From an uncultured Chloroflexia bacterium (GTDB taxonomy: Bacteria; Chloroflexota; Limnocylindria; QHBO01): a DNA stretch of 64,000 bases. A model generated the notes under the pieces. That model worked only from the letters and a program-made list of their open reading frames with translations, ran no database searches and had not been told where the DNA came from. Location: NCBI GenBank assembly GCA_963825525.1, contig CAWGTN010000002.1, forward strand, positions 1,440,001 to 1,504,000, in the 5' to 3' direction. The position numbers were made by a program, and so were the translations under genes. Positions 1 through 15,782 of this stretch are shown one piece after another (positions within the stretch are counted from its first letter, which is position 1; each line of letters opens with the position of its first letter).

Positions 1-50
1 CGGTCGTGCTCCACGTTCCCGCCGAGGCCGCCGAGGACACCGGCGCCTGA
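1..50 (+). CDS. 3' end of an unidentified ORF entering the window
   Basis: Frame from position 3 reads VVLHVPAEAAEDTGA-stop (TGA 48-50) and is followed by a hairpin. Confidence 0.35.
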   Translation, partial: VVLHVPAEAAEDTGA

Positions 51-57
51 ACACGGA

Positions 58-88
58 ACGAGGGCGGTGCTCCGTGCACCGCCCTCGT
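58..88. terminator. Perfect 13-bp hairpin between convergent genes, likely bidirectional terminator
   Basis: ACGAGGGCGGTGC-tccgt-GCACCGCCCTCGT. Confidence 0.65.
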
Positions 89-109
89 CTCGGTTGATCT
101 CCGGTTGAG

Positions 110-1115
110 CTACCTGGTGAGGCCGATGAAGTTCGTCCTCGAGTAGCAGTCGGATCGGTCCGGTTGCACGGCGGCGTGCCGTATCCGGCCGGGACCCCCG
201 GCAGCGCGTAGAACTCCACGAAGTGGCCCTGGATCTTCGACGCGTGGATGTCGTACGACGTGAGCGAGAACGCGGCCAGGGTAATGACCTCGTAGTTCAG
301 GCCGGACCCTCCATGCCCGCCGGTCTGCGTCCAGACCGGGATGAGCACGGTCTCGCCGATCAGCGCATCGAGGCACGCCCGCACTTCACTCTTGTTCATG
401 TTGCCGGGCGCACCCTCCAGCCACAATGGGAACTCCATGGCGGGGTTGTCCGGGGTGCACATGCTGTTCGCAAGGGTGCCGGCGTCAGTTCGCCCCGCTC
501 CAGGTCAGGAAACCGAAGTTGCCCGGTCCATGGGTGCCCTCGGTCAGCTCGTACTCGATTCCAGCCTGGTAGTCGGAATCGAACGTGGTGATCGGGAGGA
601 GGATCCCGGACGGGGCTTCATTGAGGATGCCGGAGGTCATCGCCGTCGCGTCGGTCGCGACATCGACCTTCGAGATGCCGACGACCCGCATGAAGAACGT
701 GTCGGCCGGAGCTCGAGGTATCCACCCGGATCCCCTGCGCGCCGGCCGGGATCGAGCCCGCATTCGTCACCGCACCGAGGTCGATCTCGATTCCGGGGTT
801 GGCTCCCGGCTTGACGTACTCGGCCGACCAGTCGCAGCCATCGGCGGCTACGCAGCCATTGTTGACCGTGCTGGCCGCGGTCGCCGTGTAGACGTCCGCG
901 CCGGTGCGCCCGCCATCCAGGTAATGGTCCGCGATGACCTTGGTCCCTGCCATGGAGGCAAGGTCCGCGACGTTCTGCATCGAGCGCCGCTCGCGATAGC
1001 CGACACCCGTGTCGATCACGAGCCCTGCGATGAGGAGGAAAACGATCATTCCGCCGGCCACCATCACCAGGATCTGGCCGGTCTCGTCGTCTCGGTGACG
1101 AAGTCGATTCCACAT
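110..1115 (-). CDS. tadG: TadG-like minor pilin (cassette A), interrupted by about 3 frameshifts (~705, ~487, ~170)
   Basis: N-terminus MWNRLRHRDDETGQILVMVAGGMIVFLLIAGLVIDTG...QNVADLASMAG is the Tad N-terminal motif; the protein continues in other frames (TFFMRVVG...GNFGFLTW; ...DCYSRTNFIGLTR). Confidence 0.75.
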
Positions 1116-1174
1116 GGAAGTGATTCCTTTCAGGGTTGAGACCGGCCAAAGAGTCCGGAGGTTGTTGCTGTCCA

Positions 1175-1591
1175 TCAGTTGTTCACGATCGCTTCGGATC
1201 GCGCCTCGAGGTGAAGGGTGCCCACGATCTGGCCGATGATCGGCGTGATCATCGAGAGGTCGGCCTTGGCCTCGACGACCAGGATGTCGTCGACCGTGCA
1301 GCCGTAGGCACCCGCCGCGGTGCAGCTCGCGGTGACGGTTGGATTGCGCACCGCCTCGAGGAGGCTGATGACGTGCGCCTCGACCCCGGCGCGGGTCGTG
1401 TCATCGAAGGCACGCGCCTGGACCGATCCGTACCGAGCGCCTTCGCGTGCCCCCTCGGAGAGGGTGTTGTAGGTGTAGACGGCACGGCCCAGGTCGATCA
1501 GGCCGAAGATGATGAGGAAGAAGATCGGGAGAGCGAGGGCAAGCTCGACCATCGCCTGGCCGCGCCGCCCCTCCTTGCGCTTGCGAATCAT
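1175..1591 (-). CDS. tadE: TadE-family minor pilin (cassette A)
   Basis: RRGQAMVELALALP...DLGRAVYTYNTLSEGAREGARYG; start overlaps the upstream stop (TGATG). Confidence 0.88.
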   Translation of the reverse strand: MIRKRKEGRRGQAMVELALALPIFFLIIFGLIDLGRAVYTYNTLSEGAREGARYGSVQARAFDDTTRAGVEAHVISLLEAVRNPTVTASCTAAGAYGCTVDDILVVEAKADLSMITPIIGQIVGTLHLEARSEAIVNN

Positions 1592-2664
1592 CAGTTGTCC
1601 ACCGTGATCGTTGTGGTGAGGCACGGGCGCAACAGCCCCGCGGTAATGCTCTGCGAGACGACCGTGTAGTCATTGCCCGGCGGTCGCACGGGCGTGAAGT
1701 TCACGGCTGAGAAGCCCGCGCTCGACCATCTTCCCTGGGCTGCGGTGATCGGCACACCCGTGAGTACCGGGACCGTGCACTGGGCGGCCGGCGTGGCAGT
1801 CGGTGACGCGCTCGGCGACGGAGAAGGGGAGGGAGAGCCCGGGCTGGGCGTCGGCGTCGCGGTGGGCACCGGCGTCGGGCTGGGAGTCGGGCTGGGAGTC
1901 GGCGTCGACATCACCGTGCTGGAGACCAGGATCGACTGGGTCAGACACGACCCAACCGTCCCGGCCGGTACGCTCTGCCACACGATGTTCTGCCCGTTGC
2001 CACCATTCGTCGAGAGATTCGCCGCAGAGAATCCCGCGATGGTCGCCCAGACATTCTCGGCGCCGCTGATCTTGGTGGGTCCGGTCGTGAAGTTCGGGAC
2101 CGTACAACTCGACGGTGCCGGCGTTGACGTCGGCGCGGTTGTCGGAATCGGGACCGTGCCGGAACCGGTCTCGAACGAGGTGACGACCACGGCCGTCGAG
2201 GACGAGCTCAGTGTCAGGGTCCCGCCCACCAGTGAACTGATCAGCGGGGTGACGAGCGTGAACGGCGTCTTGCTGGCGACGTAATACAGGTCGCCGTCCT
2301 CGCAGTCCGCAAGCGTCTTGCCCGCACCAGTGAAGACGGTGGTGCCGGGTGCGAAGCACTTGGCAACGAAGCTCTGAAGGGTCAGGCCGTTCAGCTCGAC
2401 CTCGACCCGCGACTCGACGTTATGCGGGTCGACACAGTCAGCCGTGGTCGTTGCACACTCGGGCTCGCGCGCACCGAAGAAGGCCCCTTCCTTGACGGCA
2501 TTCTCGAGGGCCACCGAGGAGAAATAGGCCCTGCCGAGGTCCACGGTGCCGAGCACCAGGACCAGCATGACCGGGAGCAGAAGTGCGAACTCGACGAAGC
2601 TCTGGCCCCGTGCGGATCGCACCCTGGCCGTGAGCTGGGTCAGCGTCGTTCGGATCGAATTCAA
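1591..2664 (-). CDS. tadE: TadE-family minor pilin with two PASTA-like domains and a Pro/Ser/Thr linker (cassette A)
   Basis: ARGQSFVEFALLLP...DLGRAYF...NAVKEGA; two CTVP...A..W..AGF...V.QS..AG...C repeats; TTG start at 2664 is uncertain. Confidence 0.82.
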   Translation of the reverse strand: MNSIRTTLTQLTARVRSARGQSFVEFALLLPVMLVLVLGTVDLGRAYFSSVALENAVKEGAFFGAREPECATTTADCVDPHNVESRVEVELNGLTLQSFVAKCFAPGTTVFTGAGKTLADCEDGDLYYVASKTPFTLVTPLISSLVGGTLTLSSSSTAVVVTSFETGSGTVPIPTTAPTSTPAPSSCTVPNFTTGPTKISGAENVWATIAGFSAANLSTNGGNGQNIVWQSVPAGTVGSCLTQSILVSSTVMSTPTPSPTPSPTPVPTATPTPSPGSPSPSPSPSASPTATPAAQCTVPVLTGVPITAAQGRWSSAGFSAVNFTPVRPPGNDYTVVSQSITAGLLRPCLTTTITVDN

Positions 2665-2694
2665 GGGGAACCTGCAAATGCGTGATCGATCCCC

Positions 2695-2727
2695 AACGTA
2701 TGGGGCCGACCTTGCGGGGTGCCTTGC
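2695..2727 (-). promoter_or_regulatory. Conserved pilin-cassette promoter A
   Basis: Minus strand GCAAGGCACCCCGCAAGGT-cggcccca-TACGTT; same architecture upstream of all four cassettes. Confidence 0.75.
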
Positions 2728-2895
2728 GAAGGTCGGAACGATCGGCGTCTGCTGGCAGTACGAAGGTCCCGGCGGTCCGCACCGGACCGACCCGCATGCC
2801 ATCGGAGGCCACAACAGGCCCCGATCACGTGGTGACGCGGCGCACCGGGGCGGACGAGACGCCGGGTCGGCGGACCCGGGACTTCGGTACTGCCT

Positions 2896-2928
2896 GTAAG
2901 CAGTACGGCAAGGTCAATCCGGTAGGTT
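2896..2928 (+). promoter_or_regulatory. Conserved pilin-cassette promoter B
   Basis: GTAAGCAGTACGGCAAGGT-caatccgg-TAGGTT. Confidence 0.75.
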
Positions 2929-2959
2929 GCGAACTGAGACCCGAGATTGAGATTCCGCC

Positions 2960-3943
2960 GTGCACGCCCTACGCAACCTCGCGCGACGCAGCTCGCGCGC
3001 CCAGGCCCTTGCCGAATTCGCCCTCGTCCTGCCCATCATCATCCTGCTTCTCGCGATGGCGATCGACCTTGGCCGCGTGTTCTACGGATGGGTGTCCATC
3101 CAGAACGCGGCCCGCGTCGGCGCGTCCTACGCGGCGTCAAACGCTGATGCGTGGGAGTCGCCGGCGGACGCGACACGGCAGGCCCGCTACGCGACCCTGA
3201 TCCAGAATGACCTCCAGGCACTGAACTGCGCGCTCGGGGCCGTCCCGCCACCGGCCTTCGATGACCTCGACGCCGATGGAACCTACGACACCGGCGAACC
3301 GGTCGCCGTCGCGCTGGACTGCGAGTTCAGCCTCATCACGCCGATCGGCCAGACAATCCTCGGGCCAGTGAACCTCGGAGGGGAGGCGACGTACCCCGTT
3401 CACTACACGGTCGTCACCGCGCTTCCGTCGCCACCTCCACCGCCGCCACCACCGACGTGCACGGTTCCCGGCACCGTCGGCCAGTCCCGGAACACCGCGC
3501 GAAGCCTGTGGACCGGAGCGAGCTTCCAGTCCGGCAATTTGATCGAGACCACGAACGGCAACTTCACAGTCGCCACCCAGAGCCAGACGGCGGGGGCGTC
3601 GATCCCGTGCACGTCATCCATGACGATTTCCCCGGCGGCCGGACCGACGCCGACTCCGGCGGGATGCACCAAGCCGGTGGCCCAGTTCACCGGCACGCCG
3701 ACAGTCGGTAAGTCGACGCTGAACGTTCAGTTCACGGATCAGTCGACGAGCGCAGGTTGCCCGATCCTGTCGTGGAGCTGGAACTTCGACCCAGGGTCCT
3801 CCAGCCTTCAGAGCCCGAGCCACGGGTTCGTCTGGGACGGCAATGGACAGTCGACGAAATTCAAGGTCACCCTCACCGTCACGAACGCCGCCGGGTCTGA
3901 TGTGGAAACAAAGAACAACTACATCCAGGCAAACAAGCCATGA
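2960..3943 (+). CDS. tadE: TadE-family minor pilin with PASTA-like and PKD domains (cassette B)
   Basis: SRAQALAEFALVLP...NAARVGA; poly-Pro linker; CTVPGTVG...QSQTAG; PKD signature PVAQFT...VQFTDQS...WSWNFD...VTLTVTNAAG. Confidence 0.87.
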   Translation: MHALRNLARRSSRAQALAEFALVLPIIILLLAMAIDLGRVFYGWVSIQNAARVGASYAASNADAWESPADATRQARYATLIQNDLQALNCALGAVPPPAFDDLDADGTYDTGEPVAVALDCEFSLITPIGQTILGPVNLGGEATYPVHYTVVTALPSPPPPPPPPTCTVPGTVGQSRNTARSLWTGASFQSGNLIETTNGNFTVATQSQTAGASIPCTSSMTISPAAGPTPTPAGCTKPVAQFTGTPTVGKSTLNVQFTDQSTSAGCPILSWSWNFDPGSSSLQSPSHGFVWDGNGQSTKFKVTLTVTNAAGSDVETKNNYIQANKP

Positions 3944-4386
3944 CGCTGATGCGCGGCCGTGATCGCGGTCAGACGATGGTCGAGCTGGCCCTCGTGCTGC
4001 CGCTCCTCATCCTGCTCATCGCCGGGATCTTCGACTTCGGCCGTGCGATTTACGGCTACAACACCGTCATCAATGCGTCGCGCGAGGCCGCACGCGTGGC
4101 CATCGTTCACCAGACGGCCGGCACCATCGAGCAGCGGGCAGTGGACCACGCCGTAGCCCTCGGACTCAGCGCGACCGATGTCTCCATCGACTACCGCACC
4201 GCCGCCGCTCCGGAAACACCGGGCTCATGCGACTCGAGGCTCGGAACCCCCCAGATCGTGGGATGCACCGCCGTTGTTCGTGTCGACTACACCTATGAAG
4301 CCTCGATTCCGATCATCACCGCCCTGGTCGGGTCGATCGACCTGGCCGGCGAAACACGATTCCCCGTGGAGCACAACGCTCCATGA
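3940..4386 (+). CDS. tadE: TadE-family minor pilin (cassette B)
   Basis: DRGQTMVELALVLP...DFGRAIYGYNTVINASREAAR. Confidence 0.88.
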   Translation: MTLMRGRDRGQTMVELALVLPLLILLIAGIFDFGRAIYGYNTVINASREAARVAIVHQTAGTIEQRAVDHAVALGLSATDVSIDYRTAAAPETPGSCDSRLGTPQIVGCTAVVRVDYTYEASIPIITALVGSIDLAGETRFPVEHNAP

Positions 4387-5585
4387 CACCCAGGAGACTG
4401 AACCCGATGGACCGATACTTCCGCTCAGGCACCGGCTCGCGATCGCGTGAGGGGCAGGTGCTCGTCATCGTGGCCGCGGGCATGTTCGTGCTCATCGCCA
4501 TGGTCGGGCTGATCATCGACGGCGGCAATGCCCTGGCTCAGCAGCGCCGCGCGCAGAACGCGGCCGATGGGATTGCCATGGCTGGCACCGCGGTCATCCA
4601 GGACTACCTCAGCGACGCGGCAACGCCGCCGACTGCGGGCGACGTGGGGTGCGCCGTTGAGACCGCAGCAGACGCACACGAGATCGACCTCGAGAAGGCC
4701 GAGTTCACGGACTTCAACGGCACCATCGTCGGCCTCGTGCCCGCGTGCGGGTCCGGTGCGGGGATTCCGGCGGGGAGCCAGGGCGTCAAGGGCTCGAGCA
4801 CCGAGGACTTCGAGACGTTCCTCATGCGTGCGGTCGGTTTCGGCACCATGACGACGAAGGCGAATGCCACCGCTGTTGTGGGAACACCGTCCGGCGTGTG
4901 CCCGGCCAGTGCCGGGTGCGGCGTGCTCCCGGTCACCTTCCCGCGCACGATCGACACCTGCGACGGGACGAACACCGGGATCGTCGGCGAGGACGAGTGG
5001 GAGATACTGGACGAGGACGCGGTGCTGGATAGCAGCAATCTCGCCATCGTTCCGCTCTGCAAGAAGGCACCGGGCGCCACCGGCTGGCTGGACTTCGGAT
5101 GCGGCAACCTCGCAGACCACATCACGAACCCGTGCAACCAGTACATCAACATCCCGGCATGGCTTCACACCAGCCCGGGCAACCCGAACTGCTGCGAGAA
5201 CCAGCTGAATGCGTACGCGGGCTCGTCGCCCGGCGTTGCCGAAACGGCCGACCAGGTCCTCTACGTCCCGATCCACGACAACACGTGCGGCACCAAGCCG
5301 GCGGACTCCGACCCCGTCTGCCCGGGCGGCAATTGGACCGGTGGAGGTGACCTCCTCCATTACCACATCCCGTATTGGGTCGGATTCAAGCTCGATGGCG
5401 CATTCACCCAGGGGAGTGACGTCGAGTGCAACGAACTCCCGGGCACGCCGTTTTCGGGTGGCAACGGGGCCACCGGCTGCCTGAAGGGATGGTTCGTCTC
5501 GAAGGTCACCGCCCCCGGACCAATCAGTACCGTGGTGATCAACCCCGGAGATCCGGTGGCCCTGGCCATCGCCCTGATCGACTAG
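4383..5585 (+). CDS. tadG: TadG-like minor pilin with Cys-rich C-terminal domain (cassette B)
   Basis: REGQVLVIVAAGMFVLIAMVGLIIDGG...QRRAQNAADGIAMAG; start may be ATG 4407. Confidence 0.85.
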   Translation: MTPRRLNPMDRYFRSGTGSRSREGQVLVIVAAGMFVLIAMVGLIIDGGNALAQQRRAQNAADGIAMAGTAVIQDYLSDAATPPTAGDVGCAVETAADAHEIDLEKAEFTDFNGTIVGLVPACGSGAGIPAGSQGVKGSSTEDFETFLMRAVGFGTMTTKANATAVVGTPSGVCPASAGCGVLPVTFPRTIDTCDGTNTGIVGEDEWEILDEDAVLDSSNLAIVPLCKKAPGATGWLDFGCGNLADHITNPCNQYINIPAWLHTSPGNPNCCENQLNAYAGSSPGVAETADQVLYVPIHDNTCGTKPADSDPVCPGGNWTGGGDLLHYHIPYWVGFKLDGAFTQGSDVECNELPGTPFSGGNGATGCLKGWFVSKVTAPGPISTVVINPGDPVALAIALID

Positions 5586-5845
5586 CCGCGCCGGGCCGGG
5601 CCAAAATCCGCCCGGCCACTCGGCAGCCCAGTCTCTCCGTGCGCCGCGCAACCCATTTTGGGTGGCGCGGCGTTCTGGCGTCCCGCGGCGATTCGCCACC
5701 GCTAACCCTGCGAGACACCTCAGATCGCCAGGTCCCCTAACAAGATTCAGTGTTGTGCGTTGTCGCAGAGCGTGTACTGTCACAACGGATACCGCCGAAC
5801 TTCGTTAGGGTCCGTGTTGCCACAATGCACCGAGATTCGTGGTTT

Positions 5846-5878
5846 GCAAGGTCAGCTGCAAGGTTGAATGCCTACATT
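5846..5878 (+). promoter_or_regulatory. Conserved pilin-cassette promoter C
   Basis: GCAAGGTCAGCTGCAAGGT-tgaatgcc-TACATT, 8 nt before ATG 5887 (near-leaderless). Confidence 0.75.
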
Positions 5879-5886
5879 CGCGAGCG

Positions 5887-6774
5887 ATGACACGAGAATC
5901 TGAACCCGGCGCGACATCGGCCGCCCGCCGCGGCCAGGCCCTGGTCGAGCTTGCCCTGATCGCCCCTGTCCTGCTGCTCCTGCTCATCGGAGCGATTGAC
6001 CTGGGCCGCGTCTGGCAGTCACAGATCACCATCAACAATGCCGCCCGCGAAGGCGCGATGGAAGGGATCTTCCAGCCGAACTCATTCATCGCCGGTACGG
6101 CGTGCACCTCGGCCAACCAGGACTCGAACCGGATCATGTGCCGGGTCGTGAACGAGGTACGCGACTCGAGCATCACCGTGACCCCGGCAGACGTGGCGAA
6201 GTCCTGCAGCCCGTCGTGCACGCCGGGCAGCGTGGGCGCCCCGAGCACGTTGACGGTGACCGTTACGGGCCACTTCTCCCTGCTCACGCCGCTCATGGCC
6301 GTCTTCACCGGTGGCCAGGACATCACCCTCACGGCGGCCGCAGACGCGACGATTGCCATGACCCCGACCGGCGGCCCGGTCGCGACCCCCAGCCCGAGTC
6401 CGAGTCCGACGCCGACGCCGACGCCGACGCCGACTCCGACAGGCAGCCCGGGCCCGTCACCGACGCCAACCGCAACGGCAAGCCCAACGCCCCCACCGCA
6501 ACCGTGTGTGGCCCCGGTTGCGAATTTCAGCGTCAGTCCGGCCACGGGCAAGAAGAAGAAGACCGACTTCGCATTCACCGATTCTTCGACGAACATGGCG
6601 AACCCGGCCTGCAACCGGATCTGGTCGTGGAACTTCGGCGACGGAACCGGTGCTTCCTCGTCGCAGAACACCGTCCATCAGTACGACTCGGCGGGCACCT
6701 ACACGATCACCCTGTCGGTATCCAACAGCGCCGGCACCTCGACGTTCCAGCGGTCGGTCATTGTCACGCAGTAA
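5887..6774 (+). CDS. tadE: TadE-family minor pilin with PKD domain (cassette C)
   Basis: RRGQALVELALIAP...NAAREGA; PT/PS linker; PKD motif WSWNFGDG...H.Y..AGTYTITLSVSN. Confidence 0.87.
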   Translation: MTRESEPGATSAARRGQALVELALIAPVLLLLLIGAIDLGRVWQSQITINNAAREGAMEGIFQPNSFIAGTACTSANQDSNRIMCRVVNEVRDSSITVTPADVAKSCSPSCTPGSVGAPSTLTVTVTGHFSLLTPLMAVFTGGQDITLTAAADATIAMTPTGGPVATPSPSPSPTPTPTPTPTPTGSPGPSPTPTATASPTPPPQPCVAPVANFSVSPATGKKKKTDFAFTDSSTNMANPACNRIWSWNFGDGTGASSSQNTVHQYDSAGTYTITLSVSNSAGTSTFQRSVIVTQ

Positions 6775-6778
6775 GTCG

Positions 6779-7210
6779 TTGCGCGCCAAGCCAGCGCACA
6801 GCGAGAAGGGCCAGGCGATGGTCGAGTTCGCCCTCACGGTCGTCATCTTCATCGGCCTCCTGCTGGGCGTGCTCGATTTCGGCCGAGCGATCTTCATGTC
6901 GAACGGCGTCGCCGAGGCGGCGCGCGAGATCGCCCGCGTTGCGAGCGTGCATCCGGGGAACCCGATCTCGAACCCATCAGCCGATACCCAGCAGGTGATC
7001 GCGGGGCAGCGCAGCATCATCTTCGATCTCGCGAACCCGACGATGACGTGCGTCGACATCACCGGCCAGCCAGCTGCCACCCCGACCGGTGCCTGCCTTC
7101 CCGGCAATTGGGTGAAGGTCGAGATCCACGCTCCCTACAGCCCGGTGACACCAATCTTCAACCTGATGGCCATCGACCTCGAGTCGACCAGCAGCGTGCA
7201 AATACCGTGA
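6779..7210 (+). CDS. tadE: TadE-family minor pilin (cassette C)
   Basis: EKGQAMVEFALTVVIF...DFGRAIFMSNGVAEAAREIAR; TTG start is inferred. Confidence 0.85.
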   Translation: MRAKPAHSEKGQAMVEFALTVVIFIGLLLGVLDFGRAIFMSNGVAEAAREIARVASVHPGNPISNPSADTQQVIAGQRSIIFDLANPTMTCVDITGQPAATPTGACLPGNWVKVEIHAPYSPVTPIFNLMAIDLESTSSVQIP

Positions 7211-7230
7211 AGTCAGAGGTACGCCCAGCC

Positions 7231-8170
7231 ATGCATCCCGAATTTGCCGATGGAGACCGAGAGCGCGGGCAGATCCTCGTCATCTTTGCTCTCGCGCTCG
7301 TCGCGATCGTCGCCATGGTGGGCCTGGTGATCGACGGCGGTTCGGCCTTCGCCCAGCGCCGTTCACAGCAGAACGGTTCGGACCTTGCGGCCATGGCCGG
7401 CGCGAACACCTACCTGCTTACGAACAGCAACGCGTCGACGATCAGTGCGGCCCGAGAGGTTGCCCGCCAGAACGGGTGGGAGCACGGCGTCGGCGGTGTC
7501 GTCGTCAATGTGAGCATCGACACGTCCAACGGGGCGGCCGTCACGGTCGAGGTCGACGCCCCACACGACAACTACTTCGGCGGCATCGTCGGGTTCGACA
7601 CGATGGATGTTGGCACCACTGCCACCGCGGTTGGTGGTTTCCCCGATACCGTGGAGGGCGCGGCGCCGATGATCTTCAGCATCGACGCATTCAACGCCGA
7701 TGGTTCGCCGAAAGCAGCCTACGGGAACTCCGGCGCCCCATTTGCGTTCGGCGAGACGAACGGAGACGTGCCCACAGGACCTGGTGATCTTGCGTGGACG
7801 AACTACGGGACCGGCAATGTCAATACGAACGACGTCCGACAGATCATCCGAGGCAACCTCGTCATCAATAAGACGCTCGACATTCGGTGAGTACATCGGT
7901 CAGCACAACAACGGCAATCACACCGCGCTGTTCGGCGAGGTGAACTCCTACCTGGCGGGCATGGACGTCCCGGTCCCCGTCGTTGATCACAACGGCAATT
8001 TCCAGGGGTGGGCTACGTTCCACATCGTCTCGGCGTCGGGTGGCAGCGCGAAGGATGTCGTCGGGTATTTCAAGAGCTCGTTCGTGAGCCAGCGGCTGTC
8101 GATCGGCGGCTGCGCGGCAAATGACTGCCCGCGCTACCTGGGTTCGTACGTCCTCAAGCTCACCGACTGA
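7231..8170 (+). CDS. tadG: TadG-like minor pilin (cassette C), frameshift near 7882
   Basis: ERGQILVIFALALVAIVAMVGLVIDGG...QNGSDLAAMAG; C-terminus FGEYIGQHNNG...GSYVLKLTD lies in another frame. Confidence 0.8.
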
Positions 8171-8197
8171 CGCCAAGGGAACAGTCCCGACAACGCC

Positions 8198-8225
8198 AAA
8201 GCCGGTCGAGGAATCGACCGGCTTT
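8198..8225 (+). terminator. Rho-independent terminator after cassette C
   Basis: AAAGCCGGTCGA-ggaa-TCGACCGGCTTT. Confidence 0.75.
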
Positions 8226-8432
8226 CGCTTGCGTCCGTCTTGCTCAGGGAGCACGCAAGCCAACGCACGCCGCACCAGGTTTGTTACTGGCAGCGACGTG
8301 CGCCACAAGTACTGCGACGGACCCCACGCGACCCGACCGCCGCGCCACAGACCCCACGCGTCGCGAGCTCGTTTGGCCGTCGATTTTCCTATCGCTTGCT
8401 CGGTACAGGCTGCCTACGGTGCACCTCAGATG

Positions 8433-8465
8433 GCAAGCAAGACCGCAAGGTGGCGGGCATAGCCT
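8433..8465 (+). promoter_or_regulatory. Conserved pilin-cassette promoter D
   Basis: GCAAGCAAGACCGCAAGGT-ggcgggca-TAGCCT; AGGAG RBS downstream before GTG 8495. Confidence 0.75.
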
Positions 8466-8494
8466 CAGGGCATCTACCTTTTCAGGAGCCAGGC

Positions 8495-9118
8495 GTGCAG
8501 ACGATCGTTCGATTTCGGAGCCAGCGAACCCGGGACGGTGTCCGGTCCGAGCGTGGACAGTCCGCCGTCGAGTTCATCCTGGTCTTCCCGATCTTCATCC
8601 TGATCATCATCGGCCTCATGGAGTTCAGCCTGGCGTTCAACGCGCTCATCGGCGTGAACTTCGCCAGCCGCGACGCGGCACTCCTGGCCGCCGAGGCCGC
8701 CGCCGACGCGGGCGCCGATTGCGTGATCCTGAAGAGCGTGGAGTCGGACATCAACGCGCCGGCCGACCGCGACCGAATCACCGAGGTCCGCGTCTACTGG
8801 GCCACCGACACCGGGGCCATGATGCCCGGCAACCCGGTCAACGTGTACCGCCGGACGGGCAGCACCACCTGCACGACGCCCGGCGGATCGATCATCACGG
8901 TTCCGTACTCCCTGGTCGGTGTGGCCGGCTACCCGGTGAGCATCCGCTGCGACGTCATCGGCGGCTGCGGCGGCTCCCATGACACGGTCGACACGATTGC
9001 CGTCCAGGTCCGGTACACCCACGTCTGGGCCACGCCGCTGGCCCGGCTCGTGTCGCTGGGCGGCACAGGGTTCTCGTTCGAGCACACCAACGCCATGCGC
9101 ATGGAGCCATCGCTGTGA
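8495..9118 (+). CDS. tadE: TadE-family minor pilin (cassette D)
   Basis: ERGQSAVEFILVFP...ASRDAA; C-terminal MRMEP. Confidence 0.86.
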   Translation: MQTIVRFRSQRTRDGVRSERGQSAVEFILVFPIFILIIIGLMEFSLAFNALIGVNFASRDAALLAAEAAADAGADCVILKSVESDINAPADRDRITEVRVYWATDTGAMMPGNPVNVYRRTGSTTCTTPGGSIITVPYSLVGVAGYPVSIRCDVIGGCGGSHDTVDTIAVQVRYTHVWATPLARLVSLGGTGFSFEHTNAMRMEPSL

Positions 9119-9705
9119 GAGCCCTTCTCGCGCACCGCTACCGGCGCGACGCTCGCGGCCAGTCGCTGGTCGAGATGATCCTCATCCTCCCCGTGCTGCT
9201 CATGCTCACCATGGGCACGCTCGAGTTCGGCTTCGCGTTCGATCATCACATCACCCTCGAGTACGCGAGCCGCGAGGGCGCCCGCACCGGAGCTGCCCTC
9301 TCGAACGGTGCCGGCGACGCAACCCGCTGCGCAGCCATCGATCCGCAGATCATTGCTGCGGTCCAGCGCGTCCTCGACAGCCCGAGCTCATCGGTCGACC
9401 TGGCGGAGGTCCCCGAGGTTCGGATCTTCCGTGCCGGAACCAACGGGCAGGAGCTGGGACCCGTGAACCGATGGCGGTACGCCCCCGGCGCCGGCCCGAC
9501 CGTTGACGGGCAGCGACTCGACTTCGTCGAGGTCTCTGCCAGCTGGCCGGCGTGCTCGCGCCTCAGCCAGCCCAACCCGGATTCGATCGGGGTCAGCCTG
9601 ACCTACACCTACCGCTTCCAGACGCCGATGACCGGCCTGCTCGGAATGGCATCTATCAACATGGGCGACAAGACGGTCATGCCGCTCGCGCCCACGGACT
9701 ATTGA
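9115..9705 (+). CDS. tadE: TadE-family minor pilin (cassette D)
   Basis: ARGQSLVEMILILP...EFGFAF...YASREGARTG. Confidence 0.88.
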   Translation: MRALLAHRYRRDARGQSLVEMILILPVLLMLTMGTLEFGFAFDHHITLEYASREGARTGAALSNGAGDATRCAAIDPQIIAAVQRVLDSPSSSVDLAEVPEVRIFRAGTNGQELGPVNRWRYAPGAGPTVDGQRLDFVEVSASWPACSRLSQPNPDSIGVSLTYTYRFQTPMTGLLGMASINMGDKTVMPLAPTDY

Positions 9706-9715
9706 GGTCCCGCAC

Positions 9716-11869
9716 ATGACCCCGTCCGCCATCGCGCGCTTCATCCGCCGTCGTCAGCCACCGGTTGTCGAGGGAGGTGCTGAGCGCGCGAGCCGCGGCC
9801 AGATCCTGGTCCTGTTCGCGCTCCTGCTCACCATCCTCATCGGCTTCTCGGCCTTCGTGGTCGACATTGCCTGGATCTGGAGCAACCAGCTCAAGGTCCA
9901 GCGTGCGGCGGACGCAGCGGCACTTGCCGGCGTGGTCAACCTTCCCGGCCAGGTCACGGTGGCATTCAACGACGCGTGGGCCGAGTCGCGAAAGAACGGA
10001 TATCGCAATGGCGTGGGCGGGGTGGTCGTGACCCCGTCGCAGGATCCCGACAACCCTCGGCGCATGCGCGTTCGCGTGTCCGCGCCGGTGAGGACGTTCT
10101 TCATGGGCCTGTTCGGCTGGAGCCAGGTGACCGTCACCCGCGACGCAAGCGCCGACTTCGTGCTCCCGGTGCCGATGGGCAGCCCGCTGAACTACTACGG
10201 CGTCGGCGACTTCCGCACCCTCGTCACCGGATCAGTGACCGATACCGGCGAGCGGGCGGCCACGACGGCGGTCACCCCGAACGGTTGGACGACACCGAAC
10301 GGCGCGCATGCGTCCGGGGGGAGCACCCACGCCAACAACGCGACGGGCGCCAGCCAGGGATACGGGAACTTCGGCATCACGCTGCCCGCCGGCTCCGTGG
10401 TCCGAGGCATCGAGGTGCGGGTCGATGGCCGCTCGACCGACACGGCCGGATGCGCCATCGGCGTTTCGCTATCGGCCAATGGTGGGACGAGCTGGACCGC
10501 TCAGAAGACCCAGAGCCTGACGGGCGCGTTCGCCGTGAGGCGTCTTGGGGGCGCCACCGACATGTGGGGCGGTGTCTGGCTGCCGGCAGGAGTCACGAAC
10601 GGCTCGCTGGTGGTCCGCGTGACCGACGTCGATCCTGGGGCCGCCTGTGTCGACAGCGCTCGCACCGACCTTGATTACCTGAGCGTGAAGGTCTTCTACA
10701 CGGGTCCGCCCACCCAGCAGAACCGGGTGATCACCGCGCCGGACGGCACGGTGCTCGCGAGCCAGGGCTTCTGGGGTGCGATCGAGGGCCAGGGCAGCAA
10801 CCGATCGACCGGCGATGCCTACGCCACCGGCTACAACCCGAATCCCACCTTGAACGCCGACTACGACGCGCGAGGGTACGACTACACCCTGGAGCTGCCG
10901 GCAGGCGGCAAGGTGTCCATCTTCGACCCCACCTTCTGCGCGACGTCCGACGGACCGGGCGGCGGCCACTACGGGTCCGGCGACCACTGGCTGGGCGCAG
11001 CGACGCCCGTGTCCACCTACTTCCAGCTGTGGAACTCGAACGGCACCACGTTCCGGAGCGATGACACGCTGGTGGCCGCGAGTGGCTCCCTGTTCCAGAA
11101 CGAGTACCAGGCCGACCTCATCACCGGCGCGAACTTCAGCGACGGTGCAGAGCCGACGAACCCGACGGACTGCGGCGAGGGCCTGATCACGAACCCGGGC
11201 CAGGGCGGCGCGTACCACAACAAGTGGTGGCAGATGGCCAGCGGACTGGCCGCCGGCGAGTATCGGCTCCAGGTGACGACCACCAATCCCAGTAATCCGA
11301 ACGACAACTGGGACGAGAGCTTCGAGAACATGTGGTCGATCCTGGTCGAGGGCGGCGGCAAGCCGCACATCTTCGGCTCCGGGAAGATGGTGTCCTACGC
11401 CAACATCGAGGCCGGACAGCAGACGTTCTATCTCGCCCAGATCGACCGACAGGCGGGAGCCGGCAAGACGGTCGAGATCAAGCTCTTCGATCCGGGCGAC
11501 GTCGGTCAGAAGGCGTGGATGCAGATCCTTTCGCCGGACGGCAACGCGTACAACCCGGTGACGTTCAGCTACACCGCAGATAACGGGCGATCCGGCACCA
11601 ACGTCACGTGCATCCAGACGTATGGCGGTGGCGGGCCGTCGGCGCCATCCGGCTGCACCAACCTCACGAGCGGTGGATCCCTCTACCAGAACTCGTGGAT
11701 CACGGTCCAGGTGCCACTCTCGTCGAACTACGGGGCGAGCGGCCTCCAGCCGGCGGGCGAGACCGAATCCGGCTGGTGGAAGATCCGGTACACCGTGAAC
11801 AGTGGCAACGACACCACGACCTGGGAGGTCACGATCCGCGGCAACCCGGTCCGCCTGGTCGTTCCCTGA
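9716..11869 (+). CDS. tadG: Large TadG-like minor pilin / putative tip adhesin, 717 aa (cassette D)
   Basis: SRGQILVLFALLLTILIGFSAFVVD...QRAADAAALAG followed by about 550 aa of Gly/Thr/Trp-rich extracellular-type sequence. Confidence 0.85.
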   Translation: MTPSAIARFIRRRQPPVVEGGAERASRGQILVLFALLLTILIGFSAFVVDIAWIWSNQLKVQRAADAAALAGVVNLPGQVTVAFNDAWAESRKNGYRNGVGGVVVTPSQDPDNPRRMRVRVSAPVRTFFMGLFGWSQVTVTRDASADFVLPVPMGSPLNYYGVGDFRTLVTGSVTDTGERAATTAVTPNGWTTPNGAHASGGSTHANNATGASQGYGNFGITLPAGSVVRGIEVRVDGRSTDTAGCAIGVSLSANGGTSWTAQKTQSLTGAFAVRRLGGATDMWGGVWLPAGVTNGSLVVRVTDVDPGAACVDSARTDLDYLSVKVFYTGPPTQQNRVITAPDGTVLASQGFWGAIEGQGSNRSTGDAYATGYNPNPTLNADYDARGYDYTLELPAGGKVSIFDPTFCATSDGPGGGHYGSGDHWLGAATPVSTYFQLWNSNGTTFRSDDTLVAASGSLFQNEYQADLITGANFSDGAEPTNPTDCGEGLITNPGQGGAYHNKWWQMASGLAAGEYRLQVTTTNPSNPNDNWDESFENMWSILVEGGGKPHIFGSGKMVSYANIEAGQQTFYLAQIDRQAGAGKTVEIKLFDPGDVGQKAWMQILSPDGNAYNPVTFSYTADNGRSGTNVTCIQTYGGGGPSAPSGCTNLTSGGSLYQNSWITVQVPLSSNYGASGLQPAGETESGWWKIRYTVNSGNDTTTWEVTIRGNPVRLVVP

Positions 11870-11909: not shown

Positions 11910-12305
11910 GTGAACGAGCAGGCACGCCTGGTACGCGTCGAGAACGTCACCCGTGGCACGACCGTCGCCGACCGTGTGCGGGTCGCCTCGTCGAGTGTCG
12001 ATCGGACCGTTGGGCTGCTACACACTCCGGGCCTCGCGCCGGACGAGGGACTGTGGATCGAGCGAGCCCCGTCCATCCACATGTTCTTCATGCGCTACGC
12101 GATCGACGCGATCTTCGTCGACCGCGCTGGCCGGGTGACCAAGGTCGTGCCGAATCTCCGGCCCTGGAGGGTCGTGCTCTGGGCGCGGGGCGCCCGGGAT
12201 TGCCTGGAGCTCGGCGCCGGCGCCGCGGCCGTCAGCGGGACGGAGCGCGGAGACCAGCTGACCCTGGTGGACGTGGACCGGGACATGGACGAGGGCTCCC
12301 GGTAA
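11910..12305 (+). CDS. DUF192 family protein
   Basis: VA.S..DRTVGLL...SIHMFFMRYAIDAIFVD...LEL pattern. Confidence 0.8.
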   Translation: MNEQARLVRVENVTRGTTVADRVRVASSSVDRTVGLLHTPGLAPDEGLWIERAPSIHMFFMRYAIDAIFVDRAGRVTKVVPNLRPWRVVLWARGARDCLELGAGAAAVSGTERGDQLTLVDVDRDMDEGSR

Positions 12306-12350: not shown

Positions 12351-13004
12351 ATGGAGTGGCTGCTGGACGTGCTGATGCCGCCGGCGTGCACGGGTTGCGG
12401 ACGTGCCGGCTCGATCATGTGCCAACGCTGCCGCGCGGACATGCGGCCGTTCACGGACCATGCCCCGACCTTCGTGGCGCCGGACGCCGGCGTCGTGGTG
12501 GGTGAGGCGCTGGCGCTGGCCGTCGCGGCGTTCCCGTACGAGGGAGCGCTCCGCCGCGTGCTGGCAGCGCTGAAGTATCGGGGCGCCGCCCGCGTTGCGC
12601 GGCCGCTTGCCGATGCGGCCTTTCCCTCCCTCCGCCATCTCCTCGCGGTCTCCGGGCCCGCCGTGCTCGTGCCGGTGCCCATTCACCCAGGCCGGCAACG
12701 CCAACGCGGTTACAACCAGGCGTCGCTCATCGCCACGCGCCTCGCGGCCCGCGCCGAGATTCCGATGGCCGACCTGCTGACGCGGGCGCACCTCACCGAG
12801 CAGCAGCACCGCCTGACGCGCGCGGAACGAATGAGGAACATGCGTGGCGCCATCACTCCCCGGAAGGGAGCATCGGCTCCGGCCTGCGCGGTCGTGGTCG
12901 ACGACATCCTGACGACCTCGGCCACGCTCGAGGTCTGCGCCGATGCACTCCTCCGCATGGGCGTCCAGCACGTCTACGGGTTCGCCATAGCCCGCGAAGT
13001 CTGA
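12351..13004 (+). CDS. comF: ComF family protein (Zn ribbon + phosphoribosyltransferase-like)
   Basis: PPACTGC...CQRC; VPVP...RQRGYNQA; VVDDILTTSATL. Confidence 0.9.
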   Translation: MEWLLDVLMPPACTGCGRAGSIMCQRCRADMRPFTDHAPTFVAPDAGVVVGEALALAVAAFPYEGALRRVLAALKYRGAARVARPLADAAFPSLRHLLAVSGPAVLVPVPIHPGRQRQRGYNQASLIATRLAARAEIPMADLLTRAHLTEQQHRLTRAERMRNMRGAITPRKGASAPACAVVVDDILTTSATLEVCADALLRMGVQHVYGFAIAREV

Positions 13005-13059
13005 CCTGGTGCTAGCCTAGGAGGCCACCTCGAGACACGCGCAGCGGAGGATTCGGTAC

Positions 13060-13644
13060 GTGAAGACGAACCTGACCGCCCGGAACCTGGAGCTGGATGA
13101 TGAGCTCCGCAGCCAGGTCGAGCGTAAGCTCAAGCGCCTCGACAGGATCACCCACGAGTCCGCGGAGGCCGATGTCGAGCTCATCGCCAACGCCTCACAC
13201 GCCAACGACGCATCCCAGGTCGCCGAGGTGACGCTGCGCAACAACGGAGACCTCCTGCGCTCGACGGCCGCCGGCGCGTCCCCCATCGCCGCCCTCGACG
13301 TGGTGCTGGACAAGCTCGAGCGGCAGGTCGTGCGCATGAAGGAGCGGCCGCGGCGCGTCCGGGAGCGTCATGCCGACGAGGTGGACACTGTCCTCGAGCG
13401 CGAGGCGATCGGCACCGTCGACGGAGACGACGGCGCAGGCGATCGTCCGCTCATCGTGAAGACCAAACGGTTCGCCATGCGGCCGATGTTCGAAGAGGAT
13501 GCCATGGCTCAGATGGAGGAGCTCGGCCACGCTTTCTTCGTCTTCCTGAACGCCGAGAGCGAGAGCGTGGCCGTCCTCTATCGGCGTCGGGATGGATCGT
13601 TCGGGCTCATCGAGCCGGTACTGGATAACGGGAGACCGCGCTGA
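13060..13644 (+). CDS. hpf: Ribosome hibernation promoting factor, long HPF/RaiA
   Basis: ARNLELDDELRSQVERKL...DKLERQV; C-terminal PMFEEDAMAQMEELGHAFFVF...YRRRDGSFGLIEP. Confidence 0.9.
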   Translation: MKTNLTARNLELDDELRSQVERKLKRLDRITHESAEADVELIANASHANDASQVAEVTLRNNGDLLRSTAAGASPIAALDVVLDKLERQVVRMKERPRRVRERHADEVDTVLEREAIGTVDGDDGAGDRPLIVKTKRFAMRPMFEEDAMAQMEELGHAFFVFLNAESESVAVLYRRRDGSFGLIEPVLDNGRPR

Positions 13645-13659
13645 GCCTCGCCGACCTGG

Positions 13660-13779
13660 TCAGAGGATGGCCGGCAGGATCAGCAGCGCTCCGACGATCA
13701 CGATCAGCGACACGAAGAAGACGAGCAGCGCGATGCCCAGGAGATCGGTCTCGGGCGTCGTCGCCGGTTCGGGTGCCAT
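13660..13779 (-). CDS. Small single-TM membrane protein (39 aa)
   Basis: MAPEPATTPETDLLGIALLVFFVSLIVIVGALLILPAIL. Confidence 0.5.
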   Translation of the reverse strand: MAPEPATTPETDLLGIALLVFFVSLIVIVGALLILPAIL

Positions 13780-14764
13780 GCGCGGCACCGTAGCACGCCG
13801 GGAGCCACGGCGGCGCCTCACGTGGCCCCATGAAGCACCGCCGGTGGGCCTCCATCTCGGCGTCGGCCAGGGCCTGATGAAGGCCGCCCGGCGGTCGCGC
13901 CAGATCGGCGCCCGGGCGCTCCAGATCTTCAGCGACAACCCGACCGCGTGGCGTCGACGGCCGGAACCGCTGGACGACGCACCAGAGTTCGTCAGCTACT
14001 GCGCACGAGAGGGAATTGAGTGCATCGCAATCCACGCGTCGTACCTCATCAACCTCGCCGGCTCGTCCGAGCCGTTCGCCAGCCAATCCCGCGCCGGGCT
14101 GATCCACGAGGTTCAGCAGGCCCCGTACTACGGGGCTCGATTCGTGAACGTGCACATCGGGTCACATCGCGGGTCGGGTGCGGGCGGAGGGACGCGGCGG
14201 ATCGTGGAGAACGTGCGGGCCGTCCTGGACAGCACGCCACCGGACGTTCGGCTGGTGCTCGAGAACTCTGCCGGCGGCGGCGACCTCATGGGATCGACGA
14301 TCGAAGAGCTGGCGGAGATCCTGGACGGCGTTGGCGACACCCGGAACTCGGAGCGGCTGGCGTTCTGCCTGGACACCGCGCATCTGTGGGGAGCAGGCCA
14401 CGACATCTCGACCGATGCCGGGGCGATGCAGGTGGTGGATCGCTTCGGGGCGCTGATCGGGCTCGGTCGCCTGGCTCTCGTGCACCTCAACGACTCGCGC
14501 TCGGAGCTCGGATCTCTGACCGATCGCCACGAGCACGTGGGCGGCGGGCGGATCGGGCCGCTCGGGCTGGGATCACTCCTCCGCGATCCCCGGCTGGCGC
14601 GCACCGCCTTCATCATGGAGACGCCGGGTGCCGATGAGGGCTGGGACGCCGTCAACCTTCGAAGGGCGTACGCCCTGTGGCGTGGTGCACTTCAGCTGCC
14701 CGAGCTGCCGCCGAAGGCCTATCGCACGAACCGGCGTTCGACCCGGGTGTCAGCCGCTCGCTGA
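13778..14764 (+). CDS. nfo: Endonuclease IV (AP endonuclease family 2)
   Basis: LQIFSDNP, IHASYLINLA, VHIGSH, LENSAG, CLDTAHLW, HLNDS, DRHEH, IMETP; start uncertain. Confidence 0.9.
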   Translation: MRGTVARREPRRRLTWPHEAPPVGLHLGVGQGLMKAARRSRQIGARALQIFSDNPTAWRRRPEPLDDAPEFVSYCAREGIECIAIHASYLINLAGSSEPFASQSRAGLIHEVQQAPYYGARFVNVHIGSHRGSGAGGGTRRIVENVRAVLDSTPPDVRLVLENSAGGGDLMGSTIEELAEILDGVGDTRNSERLAFCLDTAHLWGAGHDISTDAGAMQVVDRFGALIGLGRLALVHLNDSRSELGSLTDRHEHVGGGRIGPLGLGSLLRDPRLARTAFIMETPGADEGWDAVNLRRAYALWRGALQLPELPPKAYRTNRRSTRVSAAR

Positions 14765-14882: not shown

Positions 14883-15782
14883 CTACCGACGGCGAAGCAG
14901 GTTCACCGCCATCACCAGCAGCGAGCCGGCGAGGAGCAGGATCGGGAGAATGATCGTCAGCAGGCCGGTCGTCACCTGCGGTCCGGTCGCCGTGTTGGGC
15001 AGCTCCGGAACCGGCGGGGTGGGATTGCCCGGAAGCTCACTCTCGCGGGCCGTCGGCGTTGACGACTCCTCGGGGGTCTCCGACGGAGATTCGCTCTCGC
15101 TGGGCGACTCGCTCGGGGACTCGCTCGGGGTTTCCGAAGGAGACTCCGAAGGAGACTCGCTCTGGCTGGGCGACTCGGTCGGGGTTGCCGAAGGAGACTC
15201 GGTCGGGGTTGCCGAAGGAGACTCGGTCGGGGTTGCCGAAGGAGACTCGGTCGGGGTTGCCGAAGGAGACTCGGTCGGGGTTGCCGAAGGAGACTCGGTC
15301 GGGGTTGCCGAAGGAGACTCGGTCGGGGTTGCCGAAGGAGACTCGGTCGGCGTTGCGCTCGGCGACTCGCTCGGGCTGGCCGAGGGCGACTCCGAAGGTG
15401 ACTCGCTCTGGCTCGGCTGCACGCAGAGCTGCGCATCGGCAAGGGCACTCGTGCTCTTGCGCTTGTCGTTCTTCCATCGGGCGTAGAGCGTCGAGCCGCC
15501 ACGCGACGTCTCGAACGCGTGCTCTCCCGACTTCCCGAAATTGACGTTCCAGTAGTTGCTGAAGTTGGAGTTCCAGCTGAACTGGATCTTGTAGTCGGGC
15601 TCGCGGCTCAGGTTGAGGATCCACGAGTAGTGCGCTTCGTCACTTGCGCACTGAGGTGCCAGGCTGGGTCGAGCCCAGGCCAGCGCGGATCCCACCGAGA
15701 CCGTCAGCACGAGTGCCGAGACGGATGCGACCGTGATCATGACCTGCGCCATGCGGCCCCGTCGGGTGTTGAAGGTGGCCAT
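14883..15782 (-). CDS. Secreted, sortase-type anchored surface protein with Ser/Pro/Thr/Glu stalk
   Basis: Signal peptide, Trp-rich domain, (SATPTESP)n stalk, LPNTA motif + hydrophobic helix + RRR tail. Confidence 0.8.
   Translation of the reverse strand: MATFNTRRGRMAQVMITVASVSALVLTVSVGSALAWARPSLAPQCASDEAHYSWILNLSREPDYKIQFSWNSNFSNYWNVNFGKSGEHAFETSRGGSTLYARWKNDKRKSTSALADAQLCVQPSQSESPSESPSASPSESPSATPTESPSATPTESPSATPTESPSATPTESPSATPTESPSATPTESPSATPTESPSATPTESPSQSESPSESPSETPSESPSESPSESESPSETPEESSTPTARESELPGNPTPPVPELPNTATGPQVTTGLLTIILPILLLAGSLLVMAVNLLRRR
15172..15356. repeat. Coding 24-bp tandem repeat, 7 perfect copies plus a partial copy
   Basis: GACTCGGTCGGGGTTGCCGAAGGA head-to-tail, no spacers. 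Confidence 0.95.

Follow-up and report, generated by a model that had tools for sequence, protein, structure and literature searches.

The window analysed here is a stretch of 64,000 nucleotides (C2:1440001-1504000, on contig CAWGTN010000002.1) from the 2.58-Mb, 92% complete genome of an uncultured member of the Chloroflexota (Candidatus Limnocylindria). Positions 110 to 11869 carry twelve prepilin-like genes in four units, A to D, each made of two TadE-type genes and one TadG-type gene, and the genes of a Tad pilus machine lie directly upstream. We consider it probable, from this gene content and by analogy with known systems, that the four units encode alternative sets of minor pilins that prime, or form the tip of, one Tad (type IVc, Flp) pilus. 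An initial annotation of the window had already read the units as alternative tips of one Tad machine; one motor and many divergent, conserved sets are indeed found, whereas the place it gave for the machine and its count of cassettes have to be revised.

Minor-pilin units and the adjoining Tad machine

The G+C content of the window (65-70%) produces many spurious open reading frames, and the twelve genes in 110-11869 were picked by third-position G+C and by Pfam. All eight proposed TadE genes score above the gathering cut-off of PF07811 (TadE; 22.9 bits), with 42.8-65.5 bits and E values of 6e-11 to 5e-18, and all four proposed TadG genes score above that of PF13400 (Tad, the TadG N-terminus; 22.3 bits), with 32.8-40.2 bits and E values of 9e-8 to 4e-10. 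The twelve genes and four TadE-TadE-TadG units of the initial annotation are all found where it placed them, in the same order and with Pfam backing. The same is true of the N-terminal motifs: in the translations, seven TadE copies have G-Q-x-x-x-E and the eighth, B1, has A-Q-x-x-x-E, and in all four TadG copies the motif is G-Q-x-L-V, where a hydrophobic residue takes the fifth position, that of the conserved glutamate (E5). Alignments of homologues conserve these features. E15 is invariant in 33 aligned sequences of the B2 type, for which 69 homologues were found. The B3 type has at least 492 homologues, in 30 of which, when aligned, G16, Q17, I21 and 11 cysteines are invariant or nearly so; the fifth residue of this type is I21, invariant in the 30 proteins, and among 34 proteins of the D3 type its consensus is leucine. 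The minor pilins would be processed by a prepilin peptidase. An NCBIfam scan returned no pilin above its cut-offs, and B3 matched none of 50,697 phage records.

Unit A lies on the reverse strand. A1 (1591..2664) is a TadE-like minor pilin (PF07811, E 6e-13) with a Pro/Thr-rich linker and two Cys-bounded PASTA-like domains (sub-threshold in Pfam), 57% identical to its orthologue in G002, a genome of the same genus. A2 (1175..1624; PF07811, E 6e-18) is a short TadE-like minor pilin with the motif G-Q-A-M-V-E, whose likely ATG start at 1591 overlaps the A1 stop, and A3 (110..1175; PF13400, E 7e-10) is a TadG-like minor pilin without E5 that occupies three or four frames in the assembly. In three sequencing runs an additional A follows 2662, where A1 is proposed to start, which leaves that start unsure. 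A divergent spacer of 295 bp (2665..2959, from the gene coordinates), presumed to be the promoter region for both units, separates A from unit B, and B, C and D are all on the forward strand. B1 (2960..3943; PF07811, E 6e-12) is TadE-like, with the motif A-Q-A-L-A-E, a poly-Pro linker, one PASTA-like domain and one PKD domain (PKD_4, E 8e-9); B2 (3940..4386; PF07811, E 5e-18) is a short TadE-like minor pilin whose gene overlaps each neighbour by 4 nt; and B3 (4383..5585; PF13400, E 9e-8) is TadG-like, lacks E5 and has a Cys-rich globular part with 14 cysteines. In unit C, C1 (5887..6774; PF07811, E 6e-16) is a TadE-like minor pilin carrying one PKD domain (PKD_4, E 9e-15) and a Pro/Thr linker, 65% identical to its G002 orthologue, and it is followed by the short TadE-like gene C2 (6779..7210; PF07811, E 5e-12; start TTG at 6779 or 6761) and by C3 (7207..8170; PF13400, E 4e-10), TadG-like, without E5 and with one frame break at 7883. 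In four soil runs, contig depth is 66-103 over 6211-6624, the Pro/Thr linker of C1; this low-complexity DNA is probably common to many organisms. Unit D consists of two TadE-like minor pilins, D1 (8495..9118; 207 aa, no added domain; PF07811, E 6e-11) and D2 (9115..9705; 196 aa; PF07811, E 6e-15), which are 28% identical across 200 aa, and the TadG-like D3 (9716..11869; 717 aa; PF13400, E 5e-9). The genes within a unit overlap by 1-4 nt or are 10 nt apart, an operon-like spacing, and the spacers between units measure 295, 301 and 324 bp. The sets may be regulated separately; a promoter and terminator scan returned no promoter-like (sigma-70-like) site and one terminator-like site, not above shuffled sequence.

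The machine for these pilins is close at hand. The initial annotation was correct that the window contains no Flp or TadA/B/C gene, but it supposed the machine to be encoded elsewhere, and the tad genes in fact adjoin the window on its upstream side. As tadC ends ~2.15 kb before window base 1, machine and units form one 23-kb tad locus. The upstream order is histidine kinase, LuxR-type regulator, Flp-like pilin, cpaB, a fusion of response regulator and tadZ that is seen in relatives, tadA, tadB, tadC, OmpR-type regulator and GAF sensor kinase. The last of these genes begins upstream of the window, after tadC and the response regulator, and ends at window base 97, so that its 3' end (GAF/HisKA/HATPase; 1..97, forward strand) is the first feature of the window; it has one frame break, and its orthologues in locus L012 and in G002 are intact (518 and 509 aa). 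This single locus thereby holds a TadA-type ATPase, TadB/TadC, CpaB, TadZ and an Flp with a G/XXXXEY motif, the Tad (type IVc) set, with several of the genes frame-broken. The Flp-like gene (~9868-10050 of locus L003) scores 26.6 bits, under the Flp Pfam cut-off of 32.2. The closest TadA, 90% identical, comes from a Candidatus Limnocylindria metagenome-assembled genome, followed by further Chloroflexota genomes of this kind. The sequencing runs that hold matching DNA are soil metagenomes (shares of at most 0.32), and no RNA run is among those listed. Before the kinase/regulator pair of the tad locus there are three consecutive paralogous glycosyltransferase genes of the GT87 family (L003 640-6019).

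In the genome as a whole, one match to PF00437 (T2SSE ATPase) exceeds the cut-off, and it lies ~4 kb before the window (C2:1434878-1435711). There is one A24 prepilin peptidase (C2:670691), far from the locus, and no secretin was found in the genome. Matches over cut-off number 11 for TadE and 6 for TadG. They include a fifth TadE-TadE-TadG unit, E (C2:490463-493337), and cassette F, a TadE-TadG pair (C2:170813-174374, corresponding to 3813-7374 on the reverse strand of locus L007, C2:167001-179000) beside a second cpaB-like gene with SAF and RcpC domains. The genome accordingly has six sets, one of them with a single TadE, against one ATPase over cut-off. The view that one Tad machine serves all the cassettes agrees with this count of 1 ATPase to 6 TadG and 11 TadE; the number of cassettes, given as four, holds for the window but is six for the genome. 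A machine of its own for each cassette is rejected, since only one ATPase was found in the genome.

The added domains differ in how firmly they can be named. PKD domains (PF18911/PF00801) are above the cut-off (27 bits) in B1 (35.9 bits, E 8e-9) and in C1 (54.9 bits, E 9e-15). In a search of 1.8 billion representatives, B1 residues 237-327 match thousands of PKD repeats, and such repeats dominate the result; two true orthologues of B1 are among the 150 matches listed. The PASTA-like label is only a lead, given by three weak signals. First, the last domain of A1 reaches 18.1 bits (E 0.0027) in Pfam, under the PASTA (PF03793) cut-off of 23.2 bits, and B1 gives nothing with this family. Second, the best three named matches in an Atlas feature search with the PASTA-like domains are all PASTA, at lead-level scores of 0.83-0.86. 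Third, a profile of six such domains finds as its best match in the PDB the PASTA domain of PonA2, aligned end to end at a weak E of 0.11. A phmmer search of the PDB with the A1 cargo returned matches to the Pro/Thr linker only, and a model of B1, built from 4 sequences, has a predicted local distance difference test score (pLDDT) of 62, with less than 56 in the PASTA-like part.

D3 is modelled better, by AlphaFold2 with a pLDDT of 82 and a predicted TM-score (pTM) of 0.68. The model has a pilin-like beginning, with a long N-terminal helix (residues 27-73) and a small sheet, and is beta-rich after residue 100. Residues 172-330 form a jelly roll like that of carbohydrate-binding modules (CBMs), which VIA-align superposes on the CBM32 of 5xnr with a Z score of 10.8 and an rmsd of 3.5 Å over 127 aligned residues at 10% identity; it matches no Pfam family, and the likeness is one of fold only. 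Relatives of D3 of ~575 aa keep both ends and lack the jelly roll, which is thus an insert. The large C-terminal part (347-717) is also beta-rich. Foldseek searches of the PDB and BFVD with the whole model, in which 347-717 was not searched as a separate domain, gave only low-TM matches (TMq of at most 0.19) and no global relative; among the multi-beta-sandwich proteins matched are reelin, BcsB, AftD, Cry toxins and proteins of phage tails. Of the cargo that the initial annotation assigned to the units, then, the PKD domains of B1 and C1 and the beta-rich D3 are upheld, and the PASTA-like domains stay below threshold.

Turnover of the units among relatives

Seven of the 80 related tad loci returned were compared for synteny, these being the closest with long flanks together with L026 and L066. 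In six of the seven, tadC is followed by a DUF192 gene and comF, and by hpf where the locus reaches that far, and no unit lies between. In the seventh (L012), a regulator-kinase pair and a single unit stand between tadC and DUF192. In the window, the same string bounds the array on its right: the DUF192 gene (11910..12305, forward strand; PF02643, E 1e-16), which directly follows tadC in relatives without cassettes there; a comF-family gene (12351..13004, forward strand), assigned by synteny and by a TIGR00201 match with E 5e-26, under the cut-off of that family; and hpf (13060-13644), which with comF makes up the conserved right flank of the cassette island. Other genomes of the genus fill the interval differently. 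G002 has the order A, DUF192, a unit unlike any in the window, comF, C and hpf; in G008, DUF192 and comF are surrounded by three B-type units; and in G009, DUF192 has D-type units and extra TadG genes to either side. The backbone tadC-DUF192-comF-hpf is thus kept in Candidatus Limnocylindria, and the units, compared across related genomes, vary in number (0 to 4), type, order and orientation. Set against the six empty loci, the differences among G002, G008, G009 and L012 indicate that the interval between tadC and hpf is a site of gain, loss, duplication and inversion of units.

The units themselves are old. In the window they share 28-54% protein identity, mostly over the first 50-150 residues, where the N-terminal helix lies, whereas orthologues of their proteins in other species reach 52-85% over the full length. 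A tree was built of 17 TadG N-termini, from which the L012 TadG was excluded because its motif is missing; in it, the types group across genomes with support of 100/100 (A), 95/95 (C) and 100/99 (D), and the B protein pairs with a G008 copy at 88/88. This grouping by type and not by genome identifies the units as old paralogues. B3-type genes occur at E values of at most 1e-20 in 16 of 41 genomes of the genus, many of them incomplete and with the unpublished G006 and G050 among them, and the best identity is 71%. A recent tandem duplication within this genome is rejected, since the DNA self-comparison gives only 68-86% identity over 37-144 nt.

Several features of the related loci deserve mention in their own right. 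The OmpR-type regulator and GAF sensor kinase (-2147 to 97 here; also in L012, L008, L009 and L011) stand between tadC and the first cassette only where cassettes are present and are missing in the six cassette-free loci; they may control the cassettes. DUF192 directly follows tadC in all six cassette-free loci (of the set L012-L018, L026 and L066) and lies within the island in the others; in this class it behaves like a tad operon member that had gone unrecognised. Three to five tandem Flp genes precede cpaB in the relatives from other genera L014, L015, L016 and L018, and a single one does so in this genome and in L012. In a genome of another family (L010, G030:C9), a TadE-TadE pair is duplicated at 9141-10432 and 12865-14156, identical at 100% over 1292 nt, and the TadG genes beside the two pairs share only 45% protein identity, the DNA of their first 415 nt being ~86% identical; this array could reflect gene conversion, a recent duplication with a swap of the TadG body, or an assembly artefact. 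To the right of the island in the window, 14883-15782 on the reverse strand encodes a 299-aa protein with ~8 tandem Ser/Pro/Thr-rich repeats and a terminal LPxTG-like motif followed by a hydrophobic stretch and basic residues, which looks like a sortase-anchored surface protein.

Proposed alternative tips and rival explanations

In the reading that we favour, each unit would supply two TadE-type subunits with Glu5 and one TadG-type subunit without it, and the three proteins would form a trimer in the membrane, by analogy with KilL/KilM/KilN and CpaJ/CpaK/CpaL. This priming trimer would remain at the pilus's distal end with the E5-less TadG as the terminal subunit. In other type IV filaments a large subunit without E5, GspK or PilX, is terminal; the E5-less TadG proteins fit what is expected of a tip subunit and support the tip reading. 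The parts exposed at the pilus end would be PASTA-like or PKD domains on the flexible Pro/Thr linkers of the first TadE in A, B and C, the Cys-rich globular part of TadG in B, and the CBM-like jelly roll and large beta-rich domain of TadG in D. One motor could in this way build pili with different binding ends.

Several observations weigh against this reading. In the monoderm Micrococcus luteus, TadE and TadF are reported to be needed for the pilus and to go undetected by mass spectrometry in sheared pili, and the authors favour a basal structure (PMC4322843). A second motor is possible in a genome that is 92% complete, and cassette F could be what is left of a lost second machine. The cleavage site presumed for B1 has Ala rather than Gly at position -1. 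Furthermore, among genomes with a completeness of 90% or more and a contamination of 5% or less, and with Pfam match counts that do not equal exact copy numbers, the ratio of TadG to ATPase matches is high, in favour of the reading, in the genus (6/1 in this genome, 6/1 in G002, 4/1 in G017 and 7/2 in G009) but near 1:1 in other families of the class (3/3 in G025, 7/6 in G029, 4/4 in G033 and 4/7 in G031), with G028 and G030 at 5/2; an arrangement of many tips on one motor is therefore not general. Finally, A3, C3, cpaB, tadZ, tadC (three breaks) and the sensor kinase gene carry frame breaks, and if these are real the locus is decaying.

The frame breaks are probably assembly errors. The intact 397-aa orthologue of A3 in G002 aligns to 1301-711, 703-494 and 495-148 in three frames, with breaks at ~705 and ~495, and the stop at 110 needs a further shift, probably through a break near 148-110; the intact 375-aa orthologue of C3 aligns to 7084-7884 and 7883-8167 in two frames, with the break at 7883. 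Unbroken are tadA and the ten other cassette genes, and tadB aligns in one frame, with open reading frame calls that hint at a break near its end. The tad locus has ~1 break per 2 kb, and many genes of the assembly are split, as at L006 9939-11025, L007 7400-10175 and L003 10275-18097. The housekeeping genes uvrB and dnaB, in the stretches around cassettes E and F, are split likewise, polA and ftsH look split by eye, and one of the two short soil contigs of related strains that cover position 7882 lacks one base there; together these point to errors of assembly. The second of the two contigs shows no gap, which speaks for a real break. Gene calls on this genome need care.

The main rival, which we hold to be a good deal less probable than alternative tips, makes the sets basal or wall-spanning scaffolds, that is, short pseudopili that guide the Flp filament through the thick envelope of a cell lacking an outer membrane and whose cargo binds the cell's own wall polymers instead of targets outside. 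PASTA domains are peptidoglycan-related modules, CBM-like folds bind glycans (the likeness of D3 being one of fold only), and no secretin was found; these points count for a scaffold, as does the finding in M. luteus that TadE and TadF are essential and yet not found in sheared pili. A scaffold does not account for six different versions per motor, nor for the changes in number and type from one species to the next. A terminal place suits the large subunit without E5, as in GspK and PilX. The TadG of Aggregatibacter actinomycetemcomitans is moreover stated to be found in pilus preparations (PMC12607857).

We regard as improbable a second rival, in which the Tad machine is a display or secretion device and short filaments present adhesin or glycan-binding domains independently of long Flp pili, much as in the pseudopilus of type II secretion. 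Cargo on pilin-like anchors with long flexible linkers would suit such a device, and one Flp gene was found in the genome against 17 minor-pilin-like genes, but the literature examined yielded no precedent in a Tad system, and Flp stands beside the machine in all seven related loci, often in 3-5 copies. That the array consists mostly of redundant or decaying duplicates, with one priming set and the rest relics, is very improbable in spite of the frame breaks in A3, C3 and several machine genes, given that uvrB and dnaB are split likewise in an error-prone assembly, that the orthologues of A3 and C3 are intact in G002, that every type is represented by hundreds of full-length relatives in which residues are invariant over the entire length, and that the extra base at 7882 is missing from one soil contig.

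The pilus may have a role in competence, as in M. luteus. In all seven related loci comF follows tadC and DUF192 in the conserved gene string; the genome has comEA and comEC at other places, and no type IV filament motor besides that of the Tad system was found in it. Because comEC was also detected in 10 of 14 control genomes and comF and hpf have long been neighbours in other phyla, this context is weak evidence. A bolder extension, which we think rather unlikely, is that in this genus of Limnocylindria the interval from tadC to hpf is a dedicated, rapidly reshuffled store of complete tip modules for the sole type IV filament of the cell, and that this filament doubles as the pilus for DNA uptake. 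Recombination at the conserved 5' ends, which encode the N-terminal helix, would exchange the modules; the array of G030 would be a snapshot of the process, and binding partners and DNA sources would both depend on which tip is chosen.

Comparison with known Tad systems

The idea of interchangeable tips on one Tad-like machine is not new. Myxococcus xanthus has one Kil (Tad-like) machine with four paralogous, interchangeable KilL/KilM/KilN sets, for which an "adaptable tips" model has been published (Herrou et al. 2025, Nat Commun 16:4425, PMC12075869). New here are the occurrence of Tad tip-type cassettes in Candidatus Limnocylindria, their tandem arrangement beside a single motor, the presence of cargo on both TadE and TadG, and a variable island with fixed flanks. 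A literature search found no paper combining Limnocylindria with pili and none combining TadE, a PKD domain and a minor pilin. The PKD and PASTA-like domains borne by TadE, together with the removable CBM-like insert of TadG, show that more than one subunit of a set can carry cargo, and the genomes offer a compact natural series for studying tip specificity that combines a single motor with 1 to 4 adjacent sets whose flanks are known.

The tad-1 and tad-2 loci of M. luteus (Angelov et al. 2015, PMC4322843) resemble the present case in their monoderm-type host and in the competence genes of the genome. They differ in that two machines have one set each, and the link to DNA uptake is genetic there and one of gene neighbourhood here. 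The TadE/TadF/TadG of Aggregatibacter and the CpaJ/CpaK/CpaL of Caulobacter belong to the same Pfam families, have prepilin-type N-termini and include one large TadG-type pilin with an added domain. For these sets a tip trimer is predicted and the small minor pilins are needed for piliation; in Caulobacter crescentus, CpaJ/CpaK/CpaL have been modelled as a tip trimer, and pili are lost without cpaJ or cpaK (PMC12607857). Each machine has one set there, compared with six here, and TadG and CpaL carry a vWA domain, which Pfam did not find in the present proteins.

The Kil system is the closest parallel. KilL, KilM and KilN are homologues of TadE, TadF and TadG and have been modelled as spearhead trimers with the KilN domain as the tip; genetics shows that different tips confer different prey ranges, and TadEFG trimers have been modelled in other bacteria as well (PMC12075869). 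The hidden Markov models of tips 1-4 are reported to match in Myxococcota only, which implies that the sets in the window are not orthologues of the Kil sets, and the main text mentions neither Chloroflexota nor PKD or PASTA (PMC12075869). The present host is a member of the Chloroflexota in which no secretin was found, and its sets come with no T3SS* partner and no sign of predation. Here four tandem sets lie beside the motor, whereas the three extra Kil sets each have their own gene cluster, and here extra domains (PKD, PASTA-like) are carried by the first TadE and not by TadG alone. The likenesses are nevertheless extensive. Both systems have several paralogous three-gene sets of the TadE/TadF/TadG kind and one machine, with one set beside the machine genes; in both, the large TadG-like member has a variable distal domain, and Cys-rich globular parts occur. 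The multiple Flp genes of L014, L015, L016 and L018, in turn, recall the Flp "adapter" pilins of the Kil system. If the sets described here are alternative tips, the adaptable Tad pilus tip is not confined to predatory Myxococcota, and the same principle would extend to soil Chloroflexota that are abundant and uncultured and apparently lack an outer-membrane secretin.

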